Positions 7,895 to 35,671 of a stretch of DNA of 35,850 nt are shown in pieces. Positions within the stretch are counted from its first letter, which is position 1; each line of letters starts with the position of its first letter. This stretch comes from Thermoflexales bacterium. GTDB taxonomy: Bacteria; Chloroflexota; Anaerolineae; Fen-1058. The stretch spans positions 1-35,850 of the forward strand of contig JADGQE010000002.1 of NCBI GenBank assembly GCA_017882055.1, read 5' to 3'. The notes under the pieces were generated by a model. It did not search any database, had not been told where the DNA came from, and saw only the letters and a list, made by a program, of their open reading frames with translations. The translations under genes and the position numbers were made by a program.

Positions 7895-8099
7895 AGGTAA
7901 GTCCGGCATGAAAGTCGGACGCCACTCGGCAATGCAACCACTATACACCTGCCATGAATGTTCCAGCCGCAGTTGCGCGAAGCGTGCGGCAGTTCACTGG
8001 CACGCGCTGGCGCGCAGCAACTGCCTCGCAATATCTTCACGATCCGTTTGTCCGAAGCGTTGTATACTTGAAAGAGCGATGACCAGCGGGTGAGATGAG

Positions 8100-8420
8100 A
8101 TGGACGAGAAACTAAAAACGATTCTAACTGAATTGCACCGTCGCTTCGAAGAACTCTACGGCGAACGATTGGTCAATTTGGTGCTCTTTGGTTCTCAGGC
8201 GCGCGGTGACGCCGCGCCGGGATCGGACATTGACGTGCTGGTTGTATTGCGTGGCACGGTAGACACTTACCAGGAGATTACGCAGACCAGCCGGATCGTA
8301 TCCGATTTGTCGCTGCGGTTTGATGAAGTGGTGAGTTGCGTCTTTATGGATCAAGATCGCTTTGCACATCGTCACGGGCCGCTATTAAGGAACGTCCGGC
8401 GAGAGGGGATTGCAGTATGA
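8100..8420 (+). CDS. MNT-type nucleotidyltransferase (antitoxin of HEPN/MNT modules)
   Basis: Minimal nucleotidyltransferase signature LFGSQARGDAAPGSDIDVLVV, about 105 aa. Its stop overlaps an ATG (ATGA at 8417..8420), as is typical for MNT-HEPN pairs. Confidence 0.8.
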   Translation: MDEKLKTILTELHRRFEELYGERLVNLVLFGSQARGDAAPGSDIDVLVVLRGTVDTYQEITQTSRIVSDLSLRFDEVVSCVFMDQDRFAHRHGPLLRNVRREGIAV

Positions 8421-8508
8421 CAGAGGATCGACCGAACAAATTTCTCGCGCCGCGCAGTTCTTAGAAGTCGCCGAGCGGCTGATCGGCCCGATCCAGCCTT
8501 CGGCGTAA
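8417..8508 (+). pseudogene. HEPN toxin remnant (frameshifted, truncated after about 30 codons)
   Basis: The coupled ATG 8417 reads MTEDRPNKFLAPRSS then stops. The +1 frame reads STEQISRAAQFLEVAERLIGPIQPSA then stops at 8508, which resembles a HEPN helix-1. A full HEPN domain would need about 120 aa. Repeat copy A begins 36 nt later. Confidence 0.4.
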
Positions 8509-8543
8509 TGAATCCGAGTATTTGTCTACCGCGTTTCCTGGAA

Positions 8544-8675
8544 TGTCATTCTGAGCGGAGCGACGCCTGGCGGCCCACCGGCGCGATGCGCCGGGCATGG
8601 GCAGAATCTCTGCGCCGGTTATCATCAAGTGCCGGTCGTGGCAGAGATTCTTCGCAAAAAACGCTCAGAATGACA
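8544..8675. mobile_element. MITE-like nested-inverted-repeat element, copy A (132 bp)
   Basis: Perfect 14-bp terminal inverted repeats (TGTCATTCTGAGCG ... CGCTCAGAATGACA). Inner inverted repeat AGAATCTCTG / CAGAGATTCT. Internal hairpin CCGGCGC-gat-GCGCCGG. The first 70 nt or so closely match copy B at 35228. Confidence 0.7.
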
Positions 8676-8729
8676 CTTCGGTAAACAATTACGAATCCGA
8701 AAACCATCTTTGCCAGAGTGATAACGCTT

Positions 8730-10982
<2,253 letters not shown>

Positions 10983-11000
10983 TCGTCATGCAAGCGAAGT

Positions 11001-11029
11001 GCCCGGTGATGAGCCGGGCCTTTTCTTTT
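11001..11029 (+). terminator. rho-independent terminator
   Basis: GCCCGG-tgatgag-CCGGGC followed by CTTTTCTTTT, 19 nt after the stop at 10982. Confidence 0.8.
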
Positions 11030-11051
11030 GATCGGGTTGGCAGGCACTCGT

Positions 11052-11079
11052 TTTACAAATGTCGGCTTGAATGTATAAT
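11052..11079 (+). promoter_or_regulatory. sigma70-type promoter of the histidine kinase gene
   Basis: TTTACA (11052..11057), 16-nt spacer, TATAAT (11074..11079), about 38 nt upstream of ATG 11117. Confidence 0.55.
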
Positions 11080-11116
11080 CCAGCGACAACATCGATCGAT
11101 TGGACAGGTGGGTCAG

Positions 11117-12289
11117 ATGCAAGACGAACGCAAAACCAAACAACAACTGATCGCTGAATTGAATCAACTGCGCAGTAACGTTCGCCGTCAAGCCGAGCAG
11201 ATGGAGCAACGCGCGGCTGAACTGGAAAGCGAGCGCCAGCGAACGCAGGCGATCCTTGACTCCGCCGGCGAGGGCATCTTGTTGCTGAATACCGAGCAGG
11301 AAATTCAATACCTCAACCCGGCGGTCGAACGGCTCACGGGCCATACGGCGGTCGAAATGTTGGGGCACGAGCTGCGCATCTGGATCAGCGGCCTTACCCC
11401 GCACAGCGTGATGAGTGATCTGGATGATCATATACGCCGGGGCGAAGTGTGGCAGGGTGAAGTGATTAATCGGCGCAAGGATGGCTCTTTGTACGATGTC
11501 GCGCTGACCATCAACCCGCTCAAAGATTCCGAAGGTCGCGTGGCGGCTTACGTCGCCATTCAGCATGACATTACTCATCTCAAAGAACTCGATCGCCTCA
11601 AAGATCAATTTGTGACGCGGATCGGGCATGAACTGCGGACACCGGTCGCCAATGTGAAGCTGTATCTTGGATTGTTGGAGCGTGGCAAGCCGGAGAAGCG
11701 CGAGCAATACTTGCAAACGCTCCGCAACGAAACTGAGCGCTTGCAGAAACTGGTAAACGGCTTCCTTGAGATTTCCGAATGGGATACCAGCACTGAACCG
11801 GTTCATCTGATGGCTGTGAGTCTGAACCCGCTCCTGGCTGATCTGTGGGCCGATCGGGCGGCACTGGCCGCCGAGCGCGGCCTCAGCCTGGATACGAATA
11901 TCGATCTGGCCTTGCCTCCGGCGCTTGCCAATCAAGCGATGGTGTTCCACATTGCATCGAACCTGATTGCGAACGCGTTAGACTATACCCCGCGCGGTGG
12001 ACGACTCACGCTGAGTACGGCGGTTCGATCGAAGCAGGATCGGAACTGGGTCACATTCTGCGTACAAGACAGCGGGCCTGGCATTGCGCCCGATGAGGTG
12101 CCGCGCCTCTTTGAGCGTTTCTATCGCGGCAAAGCCGCCGATAGTTTTGCGATTCCGGGCGCGGGACTTGGTCTGGCGATCAGCAAGGTGATTGTCGGAA
12201 AGCTCGGCGGTTTTATCACGGTGGAAAGCCCGCCGGCAATCGAAGGAGAGGGTGCGGCTTTCATCGTCTGGCTGAAGATGGCGCCGTAA
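11117..12289 (+). CDS. PAS-domain sensor histidine kinase
   Basis: Coiled coil, then PAS (ILLLNTEQEIQYLNPAVERLTGH), HisKA H-box (RIGHELRTPV) and HATPase_c (NLIANALDYT, DSGPGI, GAGLGLAI). The track start 10889 lies inside the previous gene. ATG 11117 follows the terminator and promoter and has AGGTGG 5 nt upstream. No response regulator is adjacent. Confidence 0.85.
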   Translation: MQDERKTKQQLIAELNQLRSNVRRQAEQMEQRAAELESERQRTQAILDSAGEGILLLNTEQEIQYLNPAVERLTGHTAVEMLGHELRIWISGLTPHSVMSDLDDHIRRGEVWQGEVINRRKDGSLYDVALTINPLKDSEGRVAAYVAIQHDITHLKELDRLKDQFVTRIGHELRTPVANVKLYLGLLERGKPEKREQYLQTLRNETERLQKLVNGFLEISEWDTSTEPVHLMAVSLNPLLADLWADRAALAAERGLSLDTNIDLALPPALANQAMVFHIASNLIANALDYTPRGGRLTLSTAVRSKQDRNWVTFCVQDSGPGIAPDEVPRLFERFYRGKAADSFAIPGAGLGLAISKVIVGKLGGFITVESPPAIEGEGAAFIVWLKMAP

Positions 12290-12402
12290 ATGTGGGTGCG
12301 GGCACGGGCGGGCAGCTGTTGGCCTGGCTGTTGCTGCGCTTGACGGCCTCGGCTGGCCGCAAACGTGAAGCGTAAACGGGTACACACGTGCAAACGCTAT
12401 GC

Positions 12403-12432
12403 TTGACATCGGGCGAAGCGTGGGTGTACTAT
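12403..12432 (+). promoter_or_regulatory. sigma70-type promoter of moeA
   Basis: TTGACA (12403..12408), 18-nt spacer, TACTAT (12427..12432). Confidence 0.5.
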
Positions 12433-12476
12433 AGTCGCAACAAAACTGCGAAGCGGATTTGATCGAGTCAGTCCCT

Positions 12477-13721
12477 ATGCTATCAGTGCAGGAAGCTCAA
12501 CAGGCAATCTTATCCGGTATTCAGCGGCTGGAACCGGAAACCATTGATCTTGCAGAGGCACTGGGGCGGGTGCTGGCTGAAGAGGTCGTGTCTGATACCG
12601 ATCTGCCTTCGTTTGATAACTCGTCGATGGATGGCTACGCCGTTCGGGCCGAAGACGTGCGCGAGGCGTCGCCCGATCGACCGGTGCGTTTGCCGGTGTG
12701 TGCCGATATTCCCGCCGGTCATCCGATTGATCTGTTGTTGCCGGTCGGTGCAGCCGCGCGCATCACGACCGGTGCGATGCTGCCGGCCGGCGCGGATGCC
12801 GTGGTGCCGGTCGAGGACACCGACGACGGCGCGCGTGGTGCAAGCCCATTGCCGGCTGCGGTGGCGATCCATCGATCGCTGAAACGCGGCGCTTTCGTGC
12901 GGTACGTGGGCGACGATGTGAGACGCGGCGAGAAAGTATTGATCTCAGGCGCGATCGTTCGTCCGGCCGAGATCGCGTTGATGGCGGCGGTTGGACATAG
13001 TCGCGTTCAAGTGATTCGGCGTCCACGCGTGGCGTTGTTTGCCACGGGCGATGAATTGGTCGCACCTGATCAGCTGCCGGCGCCGGGTCAAATTCGCAAT
13101 GTCAACGAGCAGGCGACTGCCGCGCTCGTCGAGCGATATGGCGGCGTGCCAATCCGGTTGGGTATCGCGCGCGATCGATTGGACGCCGTGACCGAAAAAC
13201 TGGTGGAGGCGATCGAGCAGCGGGCTGATCTCATCGTCACTTCGGCCGGCGTTTCAGTCGGCGCTTACGATCTGGTCAAAGAGGCAGTGGCGGCGCACGG
13301 CTCGATCGATCTGTGGCGGGTTCGTATGCGGCCGGGCAAGCCGTTAGCTTTCGGCCAGTATCGTGGCGTGCCTTTCTTTGGATTGCCCGGCAACCCTGTT
13401 TCGGCGATGCTGACGTTTGAGCAATTTGTGCGGCCGGTACTGCGCGTGCTGGGCGGTTTCACCCGCTGGCACAAGCCGACCGTCGGCGTGATTTTGTTGG
13501 AGCCGATCGAGAGTGATGGACGCGAGACTTATGCACGTGCCCGGGTTGAGCGCGACGGCGATCATTGGACGGCGCGGCTGACCGGCGGGCAAGGCTCGAA
13601 CATGTTGAGCAGTCTGGCGCGTGCGAATGCGTTGGTGATCGTGCCGGATGGCGTCTGGCAATTGCCCGCGGGCTCAGCGGCGCAGGCGCAGATGCTGGAC
13701 TGGCCGGATGAAATCGGCTGA
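12477..13721 (+). CDS. moeA: molybdopterin molybdotransferase
   Basis: MoeA/gephyrin-E signatures: ALGRVLAEEV, FDNSSMDGYAV, GAMLPAGADAVV, TGDEL, SAGVSVG, RPGKP, GLPGNPVSA. ATG 12477 gives the usual N-terminus; the track start is TTG 12459. Confidence 0.9.
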   Translation: MLSVQEAQQAILSGIQRLEPETIDLAEALGRVLAEEVVSDTDLPSFDNSSMDGYAVRAEDVREASPDRPVRLPVCADIPAGHPIDLLLPVGAAARITTGAMLPAGADAVVPVEDTDDGARGASPLPAAVAIHRSLKRGAFVRYVGDDVRRGEKVLISGAIVRPAEIALMAAVGHSRVQVIRRPRVALFATGDELVAPDQLPAPGQIRNVNEQATAALVERYGGVPIRLGIARDRLDAVTEKLVEAIEQRADLIVTSAGVSVGAYDLVKEAVAAHGSIDLWRVRMRPGKPLAFGQYRGVPFFGLPGNPVSAMLTFEQFVRPVLRVLGGFTRWHKPTVGVILLEPIESDGRETYARARVERDGDHWTARLTGGQGSNMLSSLARANALVIVPDGVWQLPAGSAAQAQMLDWPDEIG

Positions 13722-13730
13722 GGCTTGACC

Positions 13731-13758
13731 TTGCGTGTTGCATAGTTCCTGATATAAT
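13731..13758 (+). promoter_or_regulatory. candidate promoter of the acidic-protein gene
   Basis: TTGCGT (13731..13736), 16-nt spacer, TATAAT (13753..13758). A better -35 (TTGACC, 13725..13730) is 22 nt away, which is too far. Confidence 0.4.
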
Positions 13759-13805
13759 CGCGTCGAATTATCCGAACTTGTCGGATGGATGGTAGGAGGT
13801 GGTTG

Positions 13806-14117
13806 ATGCCGCGCATTCGCTGTAACTATGAAGGTTGCATTCACTTGGAAGGCGGACTTTGTACGGCCGATGATATCGATCTTGATCAAGAATTAGGCTG
13901 CCTGACGTTTTCTCAGGTAGAGGAAGAAGAGATTGCCGTCGTCGACGGTCTCGAAGACGAGTGGGCGGAGGATGAGGTTGCCACTGCCGAAGATGAAGAT
14001 GAAGACGAAGAGGAAGATTGGGAGGACCTCGACGAGGAAGAGGACGATGATGACGATGATGAAGACGAAGACGATGATAGTTTTCGTCCCGCACCCCGCA
14101 GCCGTCGAAAGGCGTGA
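13806..14117 (+). CDS. DUF1540-like Cys-motif domain fused to a polyacidic tail
   Basis: ATG 13806 with GGAGG at 13794..13798. N-terminus RCNYEGCIHLEGGLCTADDIDLD..GCLTF resembles the DUF1540 pattern C-x4-C-x7-C-x-A-x2-I...C-x-T-F (from memory). A 52-aa stretch then has 39 Asp/Glu, followed by a short basic end (RSRRKA). Confidence 0.65.
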   Translation: MPRIRCNYEGCIHLEGGLCTADDIDLDQELGCLTFSQVEEEEIAVVDGLEDEWAEDEVATAEDEDEDEEEDWEDLDEEEDDDDDDEDEDDDSFRPAPRSRRKA

Positions 14118-14151
14118 TCTCTCTTTGTGGTGAAGGTTTCTCTGGAACGAA

Positions 14152-14183
14152 CAGCGGGTTCTATCGTTAGATAGAACCCGCTG
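14152..14183. terminator. bidirectional hairpin terminator between convergent genes
   Basis: CAGCGGGTTCTATC-gtta-GATAGAACCCGCTG (14-bp perfect stem), followed by ATGTTTTGT on the + strand. It sits between the stops at 14117 (+) and 14209 (-). Confidence 0.75.
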
Positions 14184-14208
14184 ATGTTTTGTGAGTGGCT
14201 AACATGCG

Positions 14209-15165
14209 CTAATTTTGCTGCCGATGCTGTTCAATCGTCCGGCGGAAGATATCTTCGTGTTCGGTGGAGGTGTTTATGCGGGCTTTGCCGGTCTTGCTCG
14301 CGGCGGGCGTTTCCGCGACATTCTGCTGAGCGGCTTGAAAGGCGACTTGCATCGGCGTCAGCACGGGTACCTCTTCTTCTTGTTCCAGCTCGGCCATCGC
14401 TTCGGCCATATCGAACTTCATCGTCAACTTGATTTGATGCTTGCGCGCATTCACTTCGAGGACGCGGACCTCGACTTCCTCGCCGACCTTAACCACGTCT
14501 GAAGCCTGGGCGACGTATCCGCCCGGCCCCATCTCGCTGATGTGTACCATGCCTTCGCGCTCGGCCCCGATGTCGACGAATGCGCCGAAGTGTTCGACCC
14601 GTGTGACTTTGCCGGGATAGGTCTGGCCGTGCTTGATGTCATTCCAATCGAGCGCCGCCGGTTCGAGCATGCTCAAGCCGATGCGATTTTCTTTGCGCGA
14701 GGCTTTAACCACCCAGACCGTGATCTCATCGCCTTCTTTGACCAGATCGGATGGTTTGTTGACCCGGGTCTTGGCCATCGAGCTAACGGGGACCAGTCCG
14801 TCTTTGGGCGCGCCGACATTGACAAACACGCCGAAGTCTTCGACCTTGACGATCTTGCCCGTCAACTTCAGGCCGCGCTGCAGATCATTCCAGTCGAGCG
14901 GCGGCGGCTCGATGCGGGTTAGTGCGATCAAGCCTTCAGCGGGCTTAACCTGCTTGACCCAGACGGTGACCGTTTCGCCTTCCTTCAGGACATCTGCAAC
15001 GCGGGTCGCCATATGGCCGGGCTGCAGTTCTGAGATGTGCAAAAATGCTTCGCGTTCGGCGCCGATATCAAAGCGTGCGCCGGCCAATTCGACCCTGGTC
15101 ACCTTGCCTTCGAACTTCATCTTGGGTTTGATGCTGCTGAGTGGAATGCGATCTGATTCGGACAC
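14209..15165 (-). CDS. S1 RNA-binding domain protein (three S1 domains), ribosomal protein S1-like
   Basis: Three S1 repeats (GKVTRVELAGARFDIG, GKIVKVEDFGVFVNVG, GKVTRVEHFGAFVDIG). GTG 15165 preferred because AGGAAGG lies 6 nt upstream. The track start 15240 lies inside a leader hairpin. Confidence 0.8.
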   Translation of the reverse strand: MSESDRIPLSSIKPKMKFEGKVTRVELAGARFDIGAEREAFLHISELQPGHMATRVADVLKEGETVTVWVKQVKPAEGLIALTRIEPPPLDWNDLQRGLKLTGKIVKVEDFGVFVNVGAPKDGLVPVSSMAKTRVNKPSDLVKEGDEITVWVVKASRKENRIGLSMLEPAALDWNDIKHGQTYPGKVTRVEHFGAFVDIGAEREGMVHISEMGPGGYVAQASDVVKVGEEVEVRVLEVNARKHQIKLTMKFDMAEAMAELEQEEEVPVLTPMQVAFQAAQQNVAETPAASKTGKARINTSTEHEDIFRRTIEQHRQQN

Positions 15166-15683: not shown

Positions 15684-16892
15684 TCATGCTTCGTAACCCT
15701 CGGCCTCTTCGACTATCGCTTCGGCAATGGCGATCGCACCTTCCGGCGCGTCCTCATCTTCTTTGTCTTCCGCGGCGGGAGGCAGGCTGGCCTTCGCCAA
15801 CTCAGCAGCCTTCTCGACATTGCTGCGGATGGTGGCCTCGATCTCATTAGCGATCTCGGGATGGGCTTTGAGGAAGTCTTTGGCATTCTCGCGGCCCTGA
15901 CCAAATTTCACATCGCCATACGCGAAGAAAGCGCCGCGCTTGGTGATGATGTCCATGTTGGTGCCGATGTCCAGAACATCGCCGACTTTGCTGATGCCTT
16001 CGTTGAACATGATGTCGAACTCGGCTTCGCGGAAGGGTGGGGCGACTTTGTTTTTGGTCACGCGCACTTTGACGCGGTTGCCGACGACTTCGGCGTCGGT
16101 CTTGATGCTCTGAGTGCGGCGAATGTCCAACCGCACCGAGGCGTAAAACTTGAGTGCGTTACCGCCGGTGGTGGTTTCGGGATTGCCAAACATTACGCCG
16201 ATCTTCATACGGAGCTGGTTGGTGAAGACGAGGGCGGTGTTTGATTGCTTGATCGCGCCCGAAAGTTTTCGCAGCGCCTGCGACATCAGACGGGCCTGTA
16301 AGCCCATGTGACTGTCGCCCATCTCGCCTTCGATCTCAGCGCGTGGCACGAGCGCGGCGACGGAATCGATAATGATCAGATCGACTGCGCCCGATCGGAC
16401 CAGCTGTTCCGCAATTTCGAGTGCTTGCTCGCCGGTATCCGGTTGCGAGATGTACAGGTTATCGACATCGACCCCGCACAGGGCGGCGTAACCCGGATCA
16501 AGCGCATGTTCCATGTCGATGTAAGCGGTGATGCCGCCGCGCTTCTGCGTTTCGGCCACGAGGTGTTGACAGAGCGTGGTCTTGCCGGCCGATTCCGGCC
16601 CATAGATTTCCGTGACGCGGCCGCGCGGGATGCCGCCAACGCCCAGGGCCAGATCGAGTGCCAGTGAACCGGTCGGGATAGTTTCAACTTTCATATGAGT
16701 CGCTTCGCCCAGCCGCATGATCGATCCTTCGCCGAAACGCTTGAGGATGGTACCCAGCGCTTGATCGAGTGCGCGGGCCTTGCCCGGATCGATTTGAGGC
16801 TCGGCTTTCTTGGTCTTTTTTGTCTTGGCTCCTTCGATAAATTCCGTCAGTTCTTCAGGTGAGTCTGCTTCCACTTTCTTTTTGCGTGCCAT
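15684..16892 (-). CDS. recA: recombinase RecA with Lys-rich N-terminal extension and acidic tail
   Basis: [22 protein letters not shown], Walker [63 protein letters not shown] 6 nt upstream of ATG 16892, overlapping the upstream stop codon. About 36 extra N-terminal residues ([32 protein letters not shown]). Confidence 0.95.
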
Positions 16893-16902
16893 GTTGTATC
16901 TC

Positions 16903-17256
16903 CTATAGTGTTGATCGAATTGATTGCAGCACGTTGCGTGCTTCAGGAACGAAGTTTAAGAAACCGGCCAACTTTTGGCAGGTATCGAACTCACGGCAAT
17001 GCGCGCAATTGGGAATTTGATGCACGCTGCCGCAAGCCCGGATCTCGCATTCGGCGCAGTGGCCGCCCTGTCGTCCGCCGAAAGCCACACAGCCGTCACA
17101 AGTAACGTAAGCGGCTGTTAATCCCGGCGCGTTATAGAGTTGCTGCCATTTGATGGCTACGCGTTCCCTGGCGGCTTCATCGTTTGCCTGGGTAGCGAGG
17201 TAAGCCTCACACTGGGAACAATTCAATCCGCATACCGCGATCAGTTGGTCCATCAT
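16903..17256 (-). CDS. DUF3795-like Cys-rich protein
   Basis: [41 protein letters not shown] pattern. The stop is 10 nt from the recA ATG, so the two are probably co-transcribed and translationally coupled. Confidence 0.75.
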
Positions 17257-17284
17257 GACCTCTTGTAACTTTGAGGATTATACA

Positions 17285-17313
17285 AGAATAGCACAAGCGT
17301 TCTACTCTGTCAA
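17285..17313 (-). promoter_or_regulatory. promoter of the DUF3795-recA operon
   Basis: Minus strand: TTGACA (17308..17313), 17-nt spacer, TATTCT (17285..17290). A second -10-like TATAAT lies at 17277..17282. Confidence 0.6.
17289..17304. promoter_or_regulatory. candidate LexA/SOS operator (TAGAAC-N4-GTGCTA)
   Basis: Minus-strand TAGAACGCTTGTGCTA fills the promoter spacer and overlaps the -10. It is 14/16 identical to the box at 33158..33173 in the dinB-operon promoter, in the same register. Confidence 0.5.
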
Positions 17314-26829: not shown

Positions 26830-28581
26830 TCATCTTGCAAAGATTCTTCGATACGCGCCGGACTTCGCCATCAATTCATCGTGCGTGCCGATGGCGGCAA
26901 CTTTGCCGCCGCGCATCACGATGATCAAATCGGCCCAGCGAATTTGCGACAGGCGGTGCGTGATCAATAAAGTCGTTCGGCCACGGGCGGCGTTGTAGAT
27001 CGCTTGCTGAATCTGATCCTCCGTCGCGCTATCGATAGCGCTGGTCGCATCGTCCAAGATCAGAATCTTGGGATCGGTCAGCAAAGCGCGGGCGAGGGCG
27101 ATGCGCTGTCGCTGCCCGCCCGAGAGGGTCACGCCGCGTTCGCCGACGATGGTGTTATAGCCATCGCTGAACTTCAGGATAAAGTCGTGGGCTTGCGCGG
27201 ATCGGGCTGCGGCTTCAACCTGGGCCTGCGTCGCCTCAGGGCAGCCGAACTTGATATTTTCGGCTACGGTGCGTGAGAATAGAAACAGGTCCTGCTCGAT
27301 GATGGAAATCTGCCGGCGCAGAGCCGCCATTTGCCAGTCGCGCACATCAATGCCGTCGATGGTGACGCGGCCTTCGGTTGCTTCGTAGATGCGGTTGAGC
27401 AGTTTGATGATACTGGTCTTGCCTGAGCCGGTCTGTCCCACCAGTGCAATCGTTTGACCGGGCTTGATTGAGAAGGTCACATCGTCCAGCACCGGCGTTT
27501 CTGAGTGGTACTTAAACGTCACGTGCTCGAACTCGATCTCGCCTTTCATCTCGCCGGCGTAACCGGTCTGGTTCTCGTCGAGATCACTCCTGGCGTTGAT
27601 CAGTTCGAGAATGCGGCGGGCACTGGATAGGCCCGAGGCAATCTGCGGATACGCGAACGAAGTCTGAAAGGTCGGGAAGCCAAACAATTGCAGCAAGCCG
27701 TTGTAGGTGATGACCTGGCCGATATTGAGCAAACCCAGGCGATATAGGATCAGCGAATGCGCCAGGCCGGCCGCGCTGATAATCGCCAGCCACAAAAACG
27801 GCAGGAAACGTGCCTCGATGCGGCCTTGAGCGACATAGGCGTCGCGATAGGCTCGGGCACCCGTTTCAAATTTCTCGATTGCCTGGGTTTCTTGCGCTGC
27901 ACCCTTGACCGTTTCAATGCCCTCGATCGCCTCGGCCAGTACCGCGTTCATCCCGCCGAACTGGCGTCGGACCATCTCGGTCGCCGGTCGCAGCTGGCCT
28001 AAGAACCGTTGCAGCAACAGGAAATACCCGATCGCAAAGATCAGCGGCACGACGATCAGGGTCGGCTGCATCGTAGGCGCAATGACCAGCGGCATCACCA
28101 GAAACATGAACGAGCCAATAACCAGATTGACGCCGGGGTTCATCATCAAGTTGACTTCGCGCACGTCGTTGGTGGCGCGCGCCATCACGTCGCCCACCGA
28201 TTGCTGATCGTGGAACGTCATGCTCTTGCCGATCAGGCTGGCATACAGCTCATGGCGCGTATCGCGTTCGAGCCGCTGGCCGATGACTTCGCTGCTGAAG
28301 TTGCGGCCCAGCTGCAGGATGCCGCGCACGACTTGCGAAACGACGATGCCCAGCGCAGCCAGGCCGATCAAGTCGTACTGGATGGGCTTCGCAGTCACTG
28401 CGTTGAAGGCTTGTCCAATGTACACCGACATGAAGGCCGCGCCGGCCGCGTTGCCGATTGCGCCGATGAACAGGGTGACGATGAAAATCTTGTGGCGCAA
28501 AACATGCGACAGCACCCAGCGTCCGGCGTTATCGCGATGTTCGGGCGCCCATTTGAGTTGAATCGAAAATTCTGAATTCAT
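26830..28581 (-). CDS. ABC exporter permease/ATPase half-transporter (degenerate-site Walker B Asp, canonical signature)
   Basis: Walker [10 protein letters not shown], signature LSGGQRQ, Walker [13 protein letters not shown] (Asp replaces the catalytic Glu), H-loop ITHRLS. It is the upstream partner of 24912..26753. Confidence 0.9.
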
Positions 28582-28697
28582 GCTTTGATTATTGAAGGCA
28601 ACAAGTCGCCAGGTAGCGTATATCGAGCGACGTAAAGAGCGCAGGGCTAGATTTGCGTTCGCCTTTGCGCTCCTGGTTAGGCCAATGGGCTGGTTGT

Positions 28698-28970
28698 TTA
28701 GCGCGGCTCGTAGACGCTGCGGCGGTGACCAATGAGGTGGACAATGAGAAGTCGGCCTGCGCTGTCAACCGAATAGATAACCCGGTAATCACCGGCGCGA
28801 AGTTTGAACAAGCCTCTAAACTCACCGGTGAGCGCTTCATGTGGCACGCGGTCAAAGTTCTCAGCGAGCCATTTAATCTTATCGAGCACACGCTGCGCCG
28901 CTGAAGGGCTTAACCGGCGCAGGCCGTCACGGGCTTCGGGCCTGAATTCGACCGGGTAAGTTGTTACCAT
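28698..28970 (-). CDS. type II toxin, RelE/ParE family
   Basis: 90 aa. The [31 protein letters not shown] pattern is typical of RelE/ParE toxins. Its start overlaps the upstream gene's stop (ATGGTAA). Confidence 0.85.
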
Positions 28971-29182
28971 TTCAGCCCGAGATCTTTAGCAACCTCTTTG
29001 GCGGCGAGGCCGCGTTCGCCGTGCTTAACCGCCGCCATCGAGCGGCGCAGCCTGGCTTTGACGGCGGGCTTGAGTTCAAGTCCTTTATCGGGATCGCCAA
29101 GCAGCTCAGTTAATTTGCGCTCAACCGCATTTTCGATCAGCGCTTCGAGTTGCGGAATGGTCAGTTGCGAAATTGTTTTCAT
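28964..29182 (-). CDS. putative cognate antitoxin
   Basis: 72-aa gene directly upstream of the toxin and overlapping it by 7 nt. AGGAGAA SD. Assigned by position; family not recognised. Confidence 0.6.
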   Translation of the reverse strand: MKTISQLTIPQLEALIENAVERKLTELLGDPDKGLELKPAVKARLRRSMAAVKHGERGLAAKEVAKDLGLKW

Positions 29183-29233
29183 CGTGCTTCTCCTGGCTTC
29201 ATTCTACTCTAAACTTGGGGCCTGTGCCAGCAA

Positions 29234-31324
29234 TTAGCCGGGCGTCTCGCGCAGCACTTGTTGAATCAGCGTGAGCAGCGGCCCGCGTTCCTCGAAACCC
29301 TGCTCGTTGAGGGTGCTGATGGCGAGATAAATCTTCGTCCGGCAGCGGCGAATCAGACCTCGCATCAAGCGTAATAACGTTTCACGCCGGGCTGCCTGCT
29401 CGTCTTCGTCGGCCCATTTCTTGTCGGCCGGCCAATTGCGACTGAGCACATACGGATGCGTCAGCGGTTGATACAACCGTTCCCACCAGGCCGGGCTGCC
29501 CGCATTCAACCAGAATTGGTAACTCACGGATTCGTTGCTAAGCAAAAACGTATAAGCCGGCGCGAGCAGTACGGCATTCGGCGCTTCGGCGTACGGGCTT
29601 TCGACAAACGTCGCCGCGACGATACCTTCTGCCACCATGCGCACGTAGTCGCGACCGACATTGGGATCATTGGTCGCGGCATACGGGTCGGGGTTGATCG
29701 TCTGCCGGAACTTCCGCGCCGACTGGATGATTTGCGCCGTAATGCGTCCCGGATCGATTTTGGCGTGGAAGCCATAGCCGGGCTGCGATAGCAGCTCGCC
29801 GAAAAGTTTGGCGAGAAAATGATCGAGTGGGATCGGCGCATCCGCATGCCGCTGATCGCTTAGCCACTGCCGCAGCCGATCGTACTTTGCGCCGACTTCA
29901 TAGCCGATCCGATCTTGCAGTTCGGGTCGCAGGCTGTCGAATGTACGCAGTTCAGTTTGCCCGTCCCGCGATCGATATAGCCGCTCTGCAATCAGGTGTG
30001 CCCGCGCCGGATCGAGCCGGTCGATCGACCGTGCCAGCATCTGGGCGACATCGGCTTGCGGCGGCATCATTTTCCAATCAGGGTGTGCCAGCGCCGACAG
30101 CGTCATCAAGCCGCGCGTGATCGCTTCTTCATTTAATGCGCGCGACGGTCGCAGCGATCGCGTTGCGATGTTGTGCCGTGTCAATCGATCGTCCAGCGCA
30201 AATCGCAGCGCATCGCCCAGAAACGGCGCGAGGATGACGATTTCGCGCGGCGCGATCTGTTGCTCGTTGACGAGTTTGGCGACTTCACTCATGACCCAGT
30301 CCAGCATTTGTGGATGGAAGCGACCGCCGCCAAAAGCTAGCGCATTACTCGTGTTACCATGCGCCGTTCGCATAGGCAGATCGCTATCGTCGGCCAATGA
30401 ACGAACGATCGCTGCTTCAAGTGCGTGCACGTTGTCCGACATCACGTGCGATTCCGTCAGTTCGATATGTTGATCGCAGACCGCTCGAAGCGCGTAAGCC
30501 GATTGGGGATCTGCTCCCAAAAACGATCGGTAGCCCGCCTCGCGGTCGTAAACGATCAACGCCGAGTCAGTCTGCGGAATCCAATCGCGCAGCAGATCGT
30601 GCGTAATCGGCGTGTCCTCTTCGACGTTATCGATGACGAGATGGCGATAGCGTTTGAATAAGCGATCGCGGAACCAGTCACGTCGAAGCAGCTGCGTAAA
30701 GACTTCGATTTGCAAAGAGAAGTCGAGCAAGTTGTTGGCCAGGCAGTAATCGCGAAAGCGATTGATGCAGTCCTGAACTTGCGCAAAAGTGATCGTCTGC
30801 GCCGACGGACCTTCCCAGGCGGCGATCAACCGTTTGCCGACTTCGGTATGCGGAAAGCCGACGAGCGCGGCTTTGTTGAGGTTATCGAGCAATTGGCTGA
30901 AGAGGCGTTGGCCGGGCACGCGCACGCCATCGAAGTACAGCTTCTCGGCGACGAAAGGCTCGACCACTTTCTGCATGTAATATTGCGCGGTTTCGAGCGT
31001 GAGGAAAGTTGGCGGCTGATCGGCGCGCAGCGTGGTGAAGCCGGAATCATCGGCGATGGCCGGCCACATCAGATCGACCGACCGGCGTGCCAGTCCGCCC
31101 ATTGTTAATGCCTCGACTTGTTCACCTGCGGGTAAATCTGCCTGGCGCAAGAGCTGTTGATAGGGTTTCAGCAGACTTCTTTGTGGCGCGAGGACGAGGA
31201 TGCTCTTGCCATCGATGCGCGCTGCCAGCAGGGCGCGCAAACGCGCGACAGCCCATGTCGTTTTGCCTGAGCCTGCCGGGCCAGAAAGGAAAAGACGATT
31301 GAGGAGTTCGTTTGCGACGAGCAT
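29234..31324 (-). CDS. AddB/UvrD-like SF1 P-loop protein, no nuclease domain recognisable
   Basis: Walker A GPAGSGKT followed by ILVLAPQRSL (AddB-like). Motif II position reads HLVIDNVEEDTP, with D-N instead of D-E. The C-terminal RRCRTKIYLAIS resembles motif VI. No Cys cluster or PD-(D/E)XK motif seen. ATG 31324 preferred over track start 31396. Confidence 0.7.
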   Translation of the reverse strand: MLVANELLNRLFLSGPAGSGKTTWAVARLRALLAARIDGKSILVLAPQRSLLKPYQQLLRQADLPAGEQVEALTMGGLARRSVDLMWPAIADDSGFTTLRADQPPTFLTLETAQYYMQKVVEPFVAEKLYFDGVRVPGQRLFSQLLDNLNKAALVGFPHTEVGKRLIAAWEGPSAQTITFAQVQDCINRFRDYCLANNLLDFSLQIEVFTQLLRRDWFRDRLFKRYRHLVIDNVEEDTPITHDLLRDWIPQTDSALIVYDREAGYRSFLGADPQSAYALRAVCDQHIELTESHVMSDNVHALEAAIVRSLADDSDLPMRTAHGNTSNALAFGGGRFHPQMLDWVMSEVAKLVNEQQIAPREIVILAPFLGDALRFALDDRLTRHNIATRSLRPSRALNEEAITRGLMTLSALAHPDWKMMPPQADVAQMLARSIDRLDPARAHLIAERLYRSRDGQTELRTFDSLRPELQDRIGYEVGAKYDRLRQWLSDQRHADAPIPLDHFLAKLFGELLSQPGYGFHAKIDPGRITAQIIQSARKFRQTINPDPYAATNDPNVGRDYVRMVAEGIVAATFVESPYAEAPNAVLLAPAYTFLLSNESVSYQFWLNAGSPAWWERLYQPLTHPYVLSRNWPADKKWADEDEQAARRETLLRLMRGLIRRCRTKIYLAISTLNEQGFEERGPLLTLIQQVLRETPG

Positions 31325-31331
31325 AAGAGCG

Positions 31332-31340
31332 ATTATAGCA
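31332..31340 (-). promoter_or_regulatory. extended -10 element positioned for a leaderless transcript
   Basis: Minus strand TGcTATAAT, with exactly 7 nt (CGCTCTT) between TATAAT and ATG 31324. No SD. The -35 is weak (TCAACG at 18 nt). Confidence 0.45.
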
Positions 31341-31461
31341 CGCGTGTGTGATAGCCGTTGATTTCGCTTGCCTTCGCGTAGGCAATGCGCTATCAAACAT
31401 GTTCGTCTTGCGAGTTTTCTTTGAGAAATAAGAGGCTATGCGAACAGGAGCGGGCAGGGCG

Positions 31462-32631
31462 TCACTTCTTTTTCCTCGGTCGAATCAGCGATCCGCGTTG
31501 CAGTGATTGTGTGCCAAAGCGATGCCGGATTTGATCGACCGTCCTGGTGAGTTGATCAATCCGTTCGCTTCTCGGCTCAAAGAGACTGAGCTGTCTGGCA
31601 GCCAGACCCAAACCACGTGCCGCCACACCAATCAATCGAATGGGGCGGCGATTCCAATTGGCCTCGAAGAGCGACCACGCGGTTTCGAAGATGGGCTGAT
31701 CGAGATCGATCGGTTGGGGCAGGGTGGTCTGCCGTGTAAAAGTCGTGAAGTCGCCGTAGCGAATTTTGATCGCGATGGTGCGCGCGCTCAACTGATCTTC
31801 GCGCAAGCGAGCACCGACGTGCTCGCTGAGTTCGAGCAACACACTCCGTAAACTGGACACGTCTGCCACATCGCGCGTAAAGGTTGTTTCCTGGCTGACC
31901 TGTTTGATCGATTGCGCCGATTCGACGGGGGATTCATCTTCGCCGCTGGCGCGTCGAATGAGATCGGCCGCGCCGCGTTGGCCGAAGTGCCGAACCAACG
32001 TATCCGATCGCGTTTGAATGATTTGCCCGATCGTCTCAACACCCATCGACTTCAATATCTCAGCCGTTTTAGGCCCGACGCCCCACAAGGCTCGAACCGG
32101 CAGCGGTGCGAGAAAGGCGGCCTCTTGACCAAATGGCACGCGACAAATGCCATTCGGCTTCGCTTGCTCGGTGGCGATTTTGGCGACGAGCTTATTGCTG
32201 GCAATACCGATCGAGCAGGGGAGACCCAATTCATTGCGGATACGGTCGTGCAGCCAGTGCGCGAGTTTGTCGGCCGAACCGTAACGCAGTTCGGTACCGG
32301 TCACATCGAGGAATGCCTCGTCGATCGAGAATTGCTCGATTTGGGGCGTTATCTCGGATAACATCGATATGACTTCGCGCGAATGTTGTGAGTAAATATC
32401 ATGGCGACCGGGCAGGAGAATCAAAGCGGGGCACAACTGCAAAGCCGTTCGGGTCGGCATGGCCGAGCGGACACCGAACTTGCGCGCCTCGTAGGAAGCG
32501 CTGGCGATGACGCCACGCTGATCGGCGCGTCCGCCCACTGCGACCGGCTTGCCACGCAGATCGGGTCTGTCGAGCAGTTCGACCGAAACAAAGAACGCAT
32601 CGAGATCGATGTGCAGGATCGTGCGTGTCAT
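31462..32631 (-). CDS. dinB: DNA polymerase IV (Y-family)
   Basis: ILHIDLDAFFVSVE, SYEARKFGVRSAMP, SIDEAFLDVT, SIGIASNKLVAKIA and WGVGPKT: the canonical DinB motif set. Confidence 0.95.
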   Translation of the reverse strand: MTRTILHIDLDAFFVSVELLDRPDLRGKPVAVGGRADQRGVIASASYEARKFGVRSAMPTRTALQLCPALILLPGRHDIYSQHSREVISMLSEITPQIEQFSIDEAFLDVTGTELRYGSADKLAHWLHDRIRNELGLPCSIGIASNKLVAKIATEQAKPNGICRVPFGQEAAFLAPLPVRALWGVGPKTAEILKSMGVETIGQIIQTRSDTLVRHFGQRGAADLIRRASGEDESPVESAQSIKQVSQETTFTRDVADVSSLRSVLLELSEHVGARLREDQLSARTIAIKIRYGDFTTFTRQTTLPQPIDLDQPIFETAWSLFEANWNRRPIRLIGVAARGLGLAARQLSLFEPRSERIDQLTRTVDQIRHRFGTQSLQRGSLIRPRKKK

Positions 32632-32637
32632 GGCGAC

Positions 32638-32675
32638 AAAAAACCTTGCAAGAGTTTCCGAACTCTCGCAAGGTT
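32638..32675 (-). terminator. intrinsic terminator between the 143-aa gene and dinB
   Basis: Minus strand AACCTTGCGAGAGTT-cgga-AACTCTTGCAAGGTT (15-bp stem, one mismatch) followed by TTTTTTG. It starts 4 nt after the upstream stop, and its U-tract ends 6 nt before the dinB ATG. Confidence 0.75.
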
Positions 32676-32679
32676 GGAT

Positions 32680-33111
32680 TCAGCGTTTGCCGTTAGGCGA
32701 AGCGAGTAGTTTCTTATACGCGCCTTGCCATAGGGTAGGGGACTTCGTAAAGGTTGAGATGCGGATGTCGGAGAAGCGCGCTGCCAGGCCGGCGAGTTCG
32801 ATCGGCGCGGTGGCCCAATCGTCGCTGCGCAGGATCTGTTCGAGCCGCTTCGATGTATCGGGTAACCATAACCACTCGCGCCGAAGTTGATCGGCTTTGA
32901 CGTAGTAATCGCGCTTTTCCCACGCGCTGGCCGATTGATCGATCGATGTATCCATGCTGCGTAAGCCCACCACGATGAAGGCCAGCATGTCTTTGGCTTC
33001 GGCGTCGATCGATTTCTTTTCGCTGAGATGGCGTAGGATTTCGGCGATGGCGCGGCGAATGGCGTTGCGCTGTTGTGTGGGTGTTCCGTCGATGTGAGTG
33101 ATACGGCTCAT
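32680..33111 (-). CDS. hypothetical 143-aa protein, first gene of the dinB locus
   Basis: Clean ORF with helical, protein-like composition, directly downstream of the SOS-box promoter. No family or motif recognised. Confidence 0.6.
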   Translation of the reverse strand: MSRITHIDGTPTQQRNAIRRAIAEILRHLSEKKSIDAEAKDMLAFIVVGLRSMDTSIDQSASAWEKRDYYVKADQLRREWLWLPDTSKRLEQILRSDDWATAPIELAGLAARFSDIRISTFTKSPTLWQGAYKKLLASPNGKR

Positions 33112-33153
33112 AGTGATTTTGATCTCTGATTTGCGATTTCGGATTTGACGCCG

Positions 33154-33182
33154 ATGTTAGCACAAAAGTTCTAATTCGGCAA
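33154..33182 (-). promoter_or_regulatory. promoter of the 143-aa gene / dinB locus
   Basis: Minus strand TTGCCG (33177..33182), 17-nt spacer, TAACAT (33154..33159). Confidence 0.55.
33158..33173. promoter_or_regulatory. candidate LexA/SOS operator (TAGAAC-N4-GTGCTA)
   Basis: Minus-strand TAGAACTTTTGTGCTA. It starts 3 nt after the -35 and overlaps the first two nt of the -10, exactly as in the recA-operon promoter. Confidence 0.5.
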
Positions 33183-33575
33183 GCTCGAGAAATGAAGTTA
33201 CTCCAAACGTCGTAGGCCCACGTGCTTTCGCGGTCGGTGCCCGACGATGGCGCGTATTATCCACGATTTGGGCGAATTCGCAAGGCTTGCCGCCGCACCT
33301 TGATAAAAGAGGCTCGTTGAGCCGTTTGCCATAGCCATAGGTGGCTGCCTGGAGTGTTGTATGGTCAAATGGATTGCCATGGATTATCTGGGAAATCTCA
33401 CCTTAATTGCGACGGGCATGGGCAGACGCGAAGAACATTTTTCAAGGAGCGATCAACTAACAAAAAACTTGGTGCCTTGGTGGCGAGATAAAGGTCAACT
33501 GCCTGAACGTTTACCGTTTTGGAAGGAAGTTGTGTGCTCAATGAGCCGATTTTCTACATCAAAGTGAATTCACCC

Positions 33576-33604
33576 TTGACAGCGCCCGAAAATAGTATTA
33601 AACT
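33576..33604 (+). promoter_or_regulatory. promoter of the HNH-integrase pair
   Basis: TTGACA (33576..33581), 17-nt spacer, TAAACT (33599..33604). AGGAG lies 10 nt before ATG 33643. Confidence 0.55.
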
Positions 33605-33642
33605 CAACATACACTTAGTCATGTAACAGGAGTTTTGAACAC

Positions 33643-34137
33643 ATGAAGAAGATCTTGTTGTCCGCCAGTGGCAAGGGTCGGCCCTCAAATCGCACGGAAC
33701 CTGTCTACGCTCTGGTTGATGATGAGGACTACGAGTGGTTGTCACAATGGAACTGGACGGCCATCCTGACCCATCGAAAGAGCGGCGGTTATGCTACACG
33801 CAATGAATATGGTCAATCTATTCTCATGCACCGCTTAATTATGGATGCTAAAGAGGACGAAGAAGTCGATCACAAGAACAACACTGGCCTCGATAATCAA
33901 CGGGAAAATCTACGTATCGCCACGACTAAGCAAAACCGGGCAAATAAATCAAAATACGGCAACAACACATCAGGCTTCAAGGGTGTCAGTCGCAGTGGTA
34001 ATAAATGGCAAATGCACCTCAAGGCGATTTACGATACTCCAGAAGAAGCGGCTCAAGCCTATGACGCCTGCGCCAGGATCCTATTTGGTAAATTTGCCAA
34101 TCTCAACTACCCTGAGACTGAACCTCGCCGAGGATGA
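33643..34137 (+). CDS. HNH endonuclease with C-terminal AP2-like DNA-binding domain
   Basis: HNH_3-type motif VDHKNNTGLDNQRENLRIATTKQN. AP2-like FKGVSRSGNKWQMHLKAIYDTPEEAAQAYDACARILFGKFANLNYP. The coding sequence is visibly AT-richer than the flanking genes. Confidence 0.85.
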   Translation: MKKILLSASGKGRPSNRTEPVYALVDDEDYEWLSQWNWTAILTHRKSGGYATRNEYGQSILMHRLIMDAKEDEEVDHKNNTGLDNQRENLRIATTKQNRANKSKYGNNTSGFKGVSRSGNKWQMHLKAIYDTPEEAAQAYDACARILFGKFANLNYPETEPRRG

Positions 34138-34140
34138 AAA

Positions 34141-35202
34141 GTGGCTAACACGCTTAAGTCGAAATCGTCCCAATCAATGCCACTGGCGTCAGCGCCGACG
34201 TTCACCGTCGCCGACCTTGAATATGGCGAACAATTCATCGCCACCATCGCATCGAGTCCGAAAACCGCCGACGCTTATCGCTATGGACTGGGGCAGCTAG
34301 CCGAGTTCTTTGCTGCAACTAAATACCTGCCAGGCAACAAGCCCCCTGCCCCCAAATATGCTATCGCGCGATTGAACGACACAGTGCTATTGAAGTTTTA
34401 CGAATGGCTAACCAAACAAAAGTATGCCCAGACAACTTGTGATAACTATCTGGCGGCTGTAAAGCGCTTCCTGATCTGGCTCGACGCCAACGATCGATTG
34501 CCGAGTGGCTTTCAGGTGGGCAAAGCCGTCAATCGCTTGAAGGCGGCGCGCGGGACCCGCCGGGTCGCAAAGGCCGGACGCGAACCTGATCCGGGCGTGC
34601 CCAACATGGTGACGTACTACGATGCCATCCCCCTGCCCGCGCTGGACGAAAAACGCGGCAAGATCAAGCGCCTGGAGATTCTGCGTGCGCGTGCGATCGT
34701 GCATACGTTGTATGCCTCTGCCGGCCGCGTGAGCGAAGTTGCGTCTCTTACTCGCGAGATGGTACTTGATGGCCGCAAGAGCGAGATCCGCATCACGGGT
34801 AAAGGCAACAAGGATCGCATCATGTTGCTGACGGCCGACGCTCAGCGTGCCATCGCTGCCTACTGCCGCGAGCGCGACGACGATTATCCTGGTCTGTTTG
34901 TTTCGCATGGCCGCGATGTCGGTAAAACGCTGGGACGTGGGACGCTGTGGTCGGTGGTGAAAAAAGCGGCCAAAGCGCTGGGATTGTTCAAGGGCACATC
35001 GCCACATGCCTTTCGACATTTTCGCGCACAGCAACTGTTGCACGAAGGCATGGATTTAGACGTGCTACAAGCCTACCTCGGCCACGCTGACATCAGCACG
35101 ACGCGTCGCATCTACGCGCCGTACACCGCTGTGGAGAAAGTGCGCGATCAGTTGGAGACGTTTGGACGCAGTGCGCGAGATGCGGCAAATGACGCGCGAT
35201 GA
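34141..35202 (+). CDS. tyrosine recombinase / phage-type integrase
   Basis: N-terminal SAM-like core-binding domain (FYEWLTKQKYAQTTCDNYLAAVKRFLIWL). Catalytic residues R (AGRVSEV), HxxR (HAFRHFRA) and H..Y (LGHADISTTRRIYAPY). The GTG start is 3 nt after the HNH stop. Confidence 0.9.
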   Translation: MANTLKSKSSQSMPLASAPTFTVADLEYGEQFIATIASSPKTADAYRYGLGQLAEFFAATKYLPGNKPPAPKYAIARLNDTVLLKFYEWLTKQKYAQTTCDNYLAAVKRFLIWLDANDRLPSGFQVGKAVNRLKAARGTRRVAKAGREPDPGVPNMVTYYDAIPLPALDEKRGKIKRLEILRARAIVHTLYASAGRVSEVASLTREMVLDGRKSEIRITGKGNKDRIMLLTADAQRAIAAYCRERDDDYPGLFVSHGRDVGKTLGRGTLWSVVKKAAKALGLFKGTSPHAFRHFRAQQLLHEGMDLDVLQAYLGHADISTTRRIYAPYTAVEKVRDQLETFGRSARDAANDAR

Positions 35203-35380: not shown

Positions 35381-35671
35381 TCAGCCCAACTCCGCGCCCA
35401 AGTCCTGCCACGCAGGATTGCGCGACTCAATCAGCGCGATTTTCTTTTCGCGCCGCCAACCCTTGAGTTCTTTCTCGCGCGCGAGGGCCGCCTGCACGTC
35501 TTCCGTGCTTTCGTAGTAGACCAGCAAGGTGCAGTCATACTTCTGCGTGAAGCCTTCCACCAATTTCTGCTGATGTTGCGCGACGCGCCGCCGCAGGTCG
35601 TTCGTCATGCCGATGTAGATCACGCGCGAGTGGCTGGCCATGATGTAGACGTAGTAGTGTTTGGTGAGCAT
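35381..35671 (-). CDS. GIY-YIG nuclease family protein (small stand-alone URI domain)
   Basis: YYVYIMAS..VIYIGMTNDLRRRVAQH..., conserved Glu region AREKELKGWRREKK, 96 aa. GGAG SD 7 nt upstream. Confidence 0.9.
   Translation of the reverse strand: MLTKHYYVYIMASHSRVIYIGMTNDLRRRVAQHQQKLVEGFTQKYDCTLLVYYESTEDVQAALAREKELKGWRREKKIALIESRNPAWQDLGAELG

Follow-up and report, generated by a model that had tools for sequence, protein, structure and literature searches.

The window analysed here, a 35,850-nt stretch of contig JADGQE010000002.1 of a Thermoflexales bacterium, carries at 28698–33182, entirely on the minus strand, a damage-type promoter followed by a gene for a 143-residue protein (p143), dinB (DNA polymerase IV, Pol IV), a gene for an AddB-like protein and a toxin–antitoxin pair (Table 1; all coordinates refer to the window). 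From their sequence features, p143 and dinB are predicted to constitute a clade-restricted two-gene SOS operon behind a LexA-type operator, and the region probably comprises three independent units rather than one cassette: the p143–dinB operon, the AddB-like gene and a ParE/RelE insertion. An earlier note on this DNA had described p143, dinB and the AddB-like gene as one putatively SOS-controlled cassette. Every feature that it named was recovered in place, and all of them lie on the minus strand; of the cassette idea itself, the operator and the linkage of p143 to dinB stood, whereas the AddB-like gene and the toxin–antitoxin pair appear to be separate units.

The operator and the predicted p143–dinB operon

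The operator consensus is the 16-nt sequence TAGAAC-N4-GTGCTA (TAGAACNNNNGTGCTA). With one mismatch allowed, this 16-mer occurs at exactly two sites in the window against 0.03 expected, one in the p143 promoter (TAGAACTTTTGTGCTA) and the other in the promoter of a DUF3795–recA pair (TAGAACGCTTGTGCTA), and the two sites occupy matching positions within 17-nt promoter spacers. The p143 site overlaps the core promoter, taking up the spacer of TTGCCG...TAACAT and part of the –10 hexamer, in a layout that is alike in 12 relatives. Specifically, GAAC-N4-GTGC lies 51–88 nt upstream of p143 in 12 of the 13 closest loci, and close relatives retain the arrangement TTGCC-N-TAGAAC-N4-GTGCTAnnAT, with the central four nucleotides and all flanks diverged; the GTGC variant is the conserved half-site form in the clade. 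Because of the 16-mer enrichment, the twin site at recA and the conservation in orthologous promoters, we accept the site as a LexA-type operator, at which LexA is predicted to bind, and the damage-type operator described in the earlier note is thereby borne out. A chance neighbourhood, in which the GAAC-N4-GTGC match is accidental and none of the genes is damage-regulated, would agree with the frequency of the shorter 12-mer GAAC-N4-GTTC, from which the box at p143 (GAACTTTTGTGC) departs by one mismatch: at that tolerance it was found 13 times in the window against 14 expected, that is, at chance level. However, it would leave unexplained both the 16-mer count, with its second copy at recA, and the retention of the operator in 12 of 13 orthologous promoters despite diverging flanks, and we regard it as scarcely credible.

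The motif GAAC-N4-GTTC is an established LexA motif of Gram-positive bacteria (PMC3323433), and the site at this locus resembles that 'Cheo box' in its half-sites, spacing, overlap with the core promoter and occurrence at recA (PMC3323433). It differs in its promoter-proximal half-site, which in this clade consistently reads GTGC and runs into the –10 hexamer as GTGCTAnnAT. A regular-expression search across all loci found no lexA gene, and the window itself contains none. GAAC-N4-GTTC has reportedly been described for Dehalococcoides, a member of the Chloroflexota (Fernandez de Henestrosa et al., J Bacteriol 2002). At the comparator site, DUF3795 (117 aa) precedes recA behind a TTGACA promoter with the LexA-type operator (15684–17313, minus strand), and it may be SOS-regulated and co-transcribed with recA.

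The linkage of p143 to dinB was evaluated in 80 species-level loci encoding p143 homologues, comprising the 13 closest (L001–L013) and 67 more distant ones (p143 identity 41–59%; Anaerolineales, Ardenticatenales, Aggregatilineales, Promineifilaceae and others). The two genes are adjacent on one strand in 12 of the 13 close loci (L001–L010, L012 and L013) and in the metagenome loci L087 and L090, so that the earlier claim of a 143-aa gene linked to dinB behind the operator holds for this clade. Beyond it the synteny is not conserved, because none of the 67 distant loci has dinB or an AddB-like gene within 10 kb of p143; the neighbours there are varied housekeeping genes (esterase, LCP, PFK, histidine phosphatase). 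The gene-neighbourhood comparison therefore supports the association of p143 with dinB in one clade and denies it elsewhere.

The gap between p143 and dinB measures 13–81 nt across relatives, with only 13 nt in L005, and strong hairpins of differing sequence fill it in most of L001–L013. In the window, the hairpin and its T run have the form of a canonical intrinsic terminator that ends 10 nt before the dinB ATG; no dinB promoter is predicted, and there is no room for one between the hairpin and the start codon. Since no promoter fits there, dinB would be expressed via read-through, and we infer attenuation by the hairpin. The dinB product itself matches Pfam IMS (1e-52), IMS_C (6e-32) and IMS_HHH as well as NCBIfam NF002677 (349.8 against a cut-off of 256), and its translation contains a clamp-binding-type motif, QLSLF, near the C-terminus.

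Taken together with the established SOS mechanism, these features suggest how the operon may work. LexA bound to the operator, filling the spacer and overlapping the –10 hexamer of the sigma-70-type promoter, would block RNA polymerase, and DNA damage would lift the repression via RecA-stimulated self-cleavage of LexA. The transcript would carry p143 first and then the strong hairpin and T run ahead of dinB; Pol IV would be made only by read-through, and probably in smaller amounts than p143.

Table 1. Features of the locus and of the comparator promoter in the 35,850-nt window
Feature	Position	Strand	Remarks
–35 hexamer TTGCCG of the p143–dinB promoter	33177–33182	minus	read from sequence; TTGCC(N) at equal spacing in L001–L013
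LexA-type operator TAGAACTTTTGTGCTA	33158–33173	minus	inside 17-nt spacer, overlapping –10
12-nt core box GAACTTTTGTGC	33160–33171	minus	inside 17-nt promoter spacer
–10 hexamer TAACAT	33154–33159	minus	TAnnAT after GTGC in all close relatives
p143 (143-aa open reading frame, ORF)	32680–33111	minus	ORF list
Hairpin between p143 and dinB (15-bp stem, 4-nt loop)	32642–32675 (with T run 32636–32675)	minus	–22 kcal/mol
dinB (DNA polymerase IV, 389 aa)	31462–32631	minus	Pfam and NCBIfam
72-nt element TTCGCATAG-N54-CTACGCGAA	31373–31444	minus	dispersed intergenic repeat of the clade, not locus-specific
Extended –10 TGcTATAAT	31332–31340	minus	in 137-nt gap, 7 nt before AddB-like ATG at 31324
AddB-like ORF (696 aa, superfamily 1, SF1)	29234–31324	minus	start supported by homologue alignment
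Toxin–antitoxin pair: 72-aa ORF and 90-aa ParE/RelE toxin	28964–29182 and 28698–28970	minus	51 nt past AddB-like gene
Comparator operator TAGAACGCTTGTGCTA	17289–17304	minus	promoter (TTGACA, 17-nt spacer) of DUF3795 (16903–17256) and recA (15684–16892)

A scan of positions 28500–33700 against Rfam returned no RNA family at E ≤ 1.

The p143 family

Homology searches yielded 186 and then 1917 relatives of p143, from 264 species and forming 323 clusters at 50% identity; every one is unnamed, comes from Chloroflexota and measures about 140 aa. The family extends across the Anaerolineae. The members share an invariant core, SAxAWEKRDY(Y/W)xKA. The protein is soluble, with an isoelectric point that varies across the family, and its AlphaFold2 (AF2) model (predicted local distance difference test score, pLDDT, 83) is a bundle of five to six helices. 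No match to p143 was found in Pfam, NCBIfam, PHROG or PADLOC, nor in Pfam even at E = 1 across 45 members; PDB gave no sequence match, Foldseek found no structural match in PDB or BFVD, and no transmembrane segment is present. On the Pfam, PDB and Foldseek nulls and the lack of a transmembrane segment, p143 was rejected as RecX, DinI, a HEPN protein, a DinB/YfiT-type bundle or a division inhibitor. Domain fusions were equally unhelpful: the longer homologues are uninformative, and one is an apparently chimeric fragment with malic enzyme.

The distribution of boxes upstream of p143 bears on whether the operator belongs to p143 or to dinB. In L011, the operator and p143 occur without dinB, and an M20 peptidase gene directly follows p143 (the same gene follows dinB in L012 and L013). 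Among the 67 distant loci, GAAC-N4-GT(T/G)C occurs no more than 150 nt upstream of p143 in ten, against 0.5 expected, and four perfect palindromic boxes were found against 0.19 expected; a LexA-type box precedes none of the 297 control genes that neighbour p143 in these loci. Several of the boxes before distant p143 genes are promoter-embedded, in at least four differing promoter architectures. Because boxes occur at p143 loci that lack dinB, both at L011 and at the ten distant loci, p143 looks like a recurrently SOS-box gene in its own right, as judged from these motif counts. It could be supposed instead that the operator serves dinB and that p143 is an unrelated housekeeping gene in between, with no role in the damage response; the housekeeping neighbours of the distant p143 genes and the 57 of 67 distant loci without a recognisable box are in keeping with such an arrangement. 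However, the operator at L011 would then have no dinB to serve, and the roughly 20-fold enrichment of boxes at dinB-less p143 genes, with 0/297 among controls, and their several promoter architectures would be hard to account for, which makes a housekeeping p143 unlikely. Most likely, SOS control of p143 came first, and dinB later came to lie downstream of it in a single Thermoflexales-related clade, thereby coming under the p143 operator. In the distant loci, the hairpins that follow p143 are mixed (23/67 at z ≤ –2) and were not used as evidence.

With regard to function, our best guess is that p143 is a non-enzymatic binding protein that acts in the damage response and is not a dedicated Pol IV subunit; a dedicated accessory role for Pol IV is possible but disfavoured. 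A more far-reaching proposal is that p143 founds an Anaerolineae-specific family of LexA-controlled effectors, with a fold absent from PDB, whose direct target is the damage-tolerance machinery, for instance through gating of Pol IV access to the clamp or modulation of RecA filaments, and that the dinB operon reflects this functional link. We put this forward tentatively, as rather doubtful.

A second conserved setting of p143 was also observed. In 17–18 of the distant Anaerolineae loci, p143 closes a same-strand array whose other genes, ~2 kb upstream of p143, encode a 525-aa and a 141-aa protein (L030, L032, L035, L036, L038, L041, L043, L049, L050, L057, L061, L063, L064, L068, L071, L078 and L080). 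These two partners have no confident Pfam, PHROG or PDB match, and the 141-aa protein has a marginal match to RepL (E 3e-4; 20.7 bits, with the cut-off at 20.3).

The AddB-like gene and flanking elements

The AF2 model of the AddB-like protein (pLDDT 82) has the four-subdomain SF1A fold and matches UvrD, PcrA, Rep, the N-terminal ~750 residues of AddB, and AdnB. Foldseek E-values are 1e-18 for UvrD, 5.8e-18 for AddB (3u44_B, TMq 0.58) and 5e-15 for AdnB. The alignment spans only ~750 of the ~1140 AddB residues, and the sequence stops after the second RecA-like domain, with no Pfam match to PDDEXK. There is likewise no Fe–S domain, with only three Cys invariant, and no NCBIfam AddB match, and PF21445 (ADDB_N) scores 18.6 bits, below its cut-off of 26.6. 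In the homologue alignment the Walker A motif GPAGSGKT is invariant, and the position of the catalytic Glu of motif II, placed by a weak motif-level alignment to helicase IV, is an invariant Asn (DNVEED); the protein is probably able to bind ATP but impaired in hydrolysis. The description of a nuclease-less AddB/UvrD-like protein of 696 aa in the earlier note was thus accurate, and of the two proteins for which it had proposed structure and profile searches, this one acquired an SF1/AddB-like fold whereas p143 remained without a match in Pfam, PDB or Foldseek.

Genomic context points to a partner other than Pol IV. The family has more than 5000 members, and neighbourhoods were taken from 86 loci. 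A UvrD-type helicase gene is next downstream on the same strand in 48 of the 58 loci with enough sequence, within 500 nt in 41 of them, and a stand-alone PDDEXK_1 nuclease gene and recJ often follow the pair. By comparison, only two of 55 loci, each closely related to the window, have dinB upstream of the AddB-like gene, and LexA-type boxes precede 2 of 79 AddB-like genes, with no enrichment. No UvrD/AddA-type gene is present in the window, and in L005 the UvrD-type partner is ~6 kb away. We therefore regard the AddB-like protein, on the basis of the predicted structure and these neighbourhoods, as the putative B-type subunit, lacking a nuclease, of a split AddAB-like module for end processing; in this clade its gene stands apart from that of the helicase partner. 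The position beside dinB occurs in this clade only.

Relative to AddB of AddAB and to the AdnAB/UvrD SF1A helicases, the AddB-like protein shares the SF1A fold, Walker A and the usual UvrD/AddA-type neighbour, but it lacks the C-terminal RecB-type nuclease and Fe–S domain of AddB; related loci encode the nuclease separately, as a PDDEXK_1 gene. Operons of unfused UvrD and a Cas4-like nuclease have been noted in other bacteria (PMC5704561). The array of AddB-like, UvrD-type helicase, PDDEXK_1 and RecJ genes is widely conserved in Anaerolineae (L081–L166; for example, L083 at 7001–14548, L084 and L086) and looks like a split AddAB-type end-resection machine.

These results also decide how much of the cassette idea can be retained. 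A single SOS cassette of p143, dinB and the AddB-like gene, with both non-polymerase products serving as dedicated Pol IV accessory factors in the manner of imuA-imuB-dnaE2 or umuDC, is suggested by the location of all three genes on one strand behind a genuine operator, by the order p143–dinB–AddB-like in L001, L003–L005, L007–L009, L087 and L090, and by the lack of a predicted terminator in the 137-nt gap between dinB and the AddB-like gene of the window. However, the AddB-like gene has an extended –10 promoter of its own: in the window and in relatives (L003, L005, L009), TGnTAnAAT precedes the ATG by 6–7 nt and probably serves as an independent, leaderless promoter. In L001, moreover, a hairpin with a T run lies in the gap before the AddB-like gene, and the loci L010, L012 and L013 keep p143–dinB without it. 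Set beside the UvrD-type pairing of the AddB-like family and the occurrence of p143 without dinB in 67 of the 80 species loci, these data argue that the cassette reading is largely refuted by synteny, and we consider it highly improbable. The claim that the AddB-like gene is a Pol IV accessory gene is not supported, given its own promoter, the rarity of dinB upstream of it and its usual UvrD-type partner.

Several observations weigh against the favoured reading of an SOS operon followed by independent units. The operator was assigned from the identity and position of the motif, its twin at recA and its conservation, and one half-site is GTGC instead of the canonical GTTC. The p143–dinB hairpin lacks a T run in several relatives. 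A recognisable box precedes ~15% of distant p143 genes, so that SOS control of p143 is not universal, and in the 17–18 genomes where p143 belongs to the different conserved array with two unknown genes it has no box. Finally, given the gap in the window without a predicted terminator, transcription may read through from dinB into the AddB-like gene.

The third unit, the toxin–antitoxin pair, is flanked by the AddB-like gene on one side and by two ABC-transporter genes on the other. The toxin matches ParE/RelE (PF05016; 36.4 bits against a cut-off of 23), and its start is overlapped by 7 nt by the 72-aa antitoxin-like ORF, which has no family match. The pair has no homologue in L001–L013, and because the corresponding gap in the closest relative, L001, is only ~88 nt, it is best described as an apparently recent insertion specific to the window or strain.

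The 72-nt element after dinB belongs to a family of repeats of 71–76 nt with the form TTCGCRTAG-N53-58-CTAYGCGAA, whose ends are 9-bp inverted repeats around a variable interior. It was found in the window, L001, L003–L005 (two copies in L005), L007–L009, L011–L013, L087 and L090, always just after a stop codon (of dinB, the M20 peptidase gene or a GidA-like gene) and sometimes supplying the TAG itself. Its single variable pair is GU in eight cases, GC in four and AU in two on the strand opposite the genes, and the element has no Rfam match. Together with the divergent tyrosine recombinase gene upstream of the locus (34141–35202, plus strand), it prompted an integron or gene-cassette interpretation, which was rejected: (i) the recombinase scores 60 bits as an integron integrase against a threshold of 265, over the C-terminal part only; (ii) it is syntenic with ABC transporters in 13 genomes; and (iii) the 72-nt element contains no attC core sites and turns up in other, unrelated intergenic regions. 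Because the recombinase is syntenic in 13 genomes, at 72–82% identity, we take it for an Xer-like gene of the chromosome, as opposed to the integrase of a mobile element.

Around this gene, the stretch 33200–35202 (plus strand) has a low GC content of 48.5% against about 57%. An HNH homing-endonuclease-like gene (33643–34137; PHROG 99, E 3e-32) lies directly upstream of the recombinase; since it is present in only some of the 13 relatives with the recombinase (L008, L009, L010, L012), it looks like a mobile insertion. A stand-alone GIY-YIG protein of 96 aa (35381–35671, minus strand; Pfam E 3e-15) adjoins the recombinase.

Known SOS operons and implications

The closest known system is the dinB-yafN-yafO-yafP operon of E. 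coli, which likewise is LexA-controlled and joins dinB to co-transcribed non-polymerase genes, with a strain-dependent gene content (PMC3105422, PMC9578287). The present locus differs in that dinB is second, behind p143, which is unlike YafN, YafO and YafP; in the strong hairpin between the genes; in an operator of the GAAC-N4-GTTC type, not CTGT-N8-ACAG; and in a RelE/ParE pair that is outside the operon and absent in relatives. The imuA-imuB-dnaE2 and umuDC operons are damage-inducible and combine an error-prone polymerase with small accessory proteins (PMC9578287), and the p143–dinB locus resembles them as an error-prone polymerase behind a damage-type operator with a small neighbouring protein. 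However, p143 has none of the RecA-like (ImuA), inactive Y-family (ImuB) or S24-peptidase (UmuD) features, has no Pfam match and mostly occurs without any polymerase gene. Neither p143 nor the AddB-like protein matches the ImuA, ImuB, UmuD or YafNOP families, and the p143–dinB locus belongs to neither the imuAB-dnaE2 nor the umuDC type.

Overall, the locus offers a clear case of a translesion polymerase gene that appears to stand behind the operator of another gene and to be throttled by an intergenic hairpin. The AddB-like gene can be assigned not to Pol IV but to a putative split AddAB-like module of helicase, nuclease and RecJ, found widely across the class. SOS regulons are nearly unstudied in the Chloroflexota, an abundant and mostly uncultured phylum, and the sequence TAGAAC-N4-GTGCTA fused to the –10 hexamer, internally validated by recA, is a possible seed for regulon reconstruction across Anaerolineae. 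p143 represents a conserved and wholly unannotated family (~1900 database members) that is recurrently under predicted LexA-type control, and it is therefore a candidate for a new SOS function.

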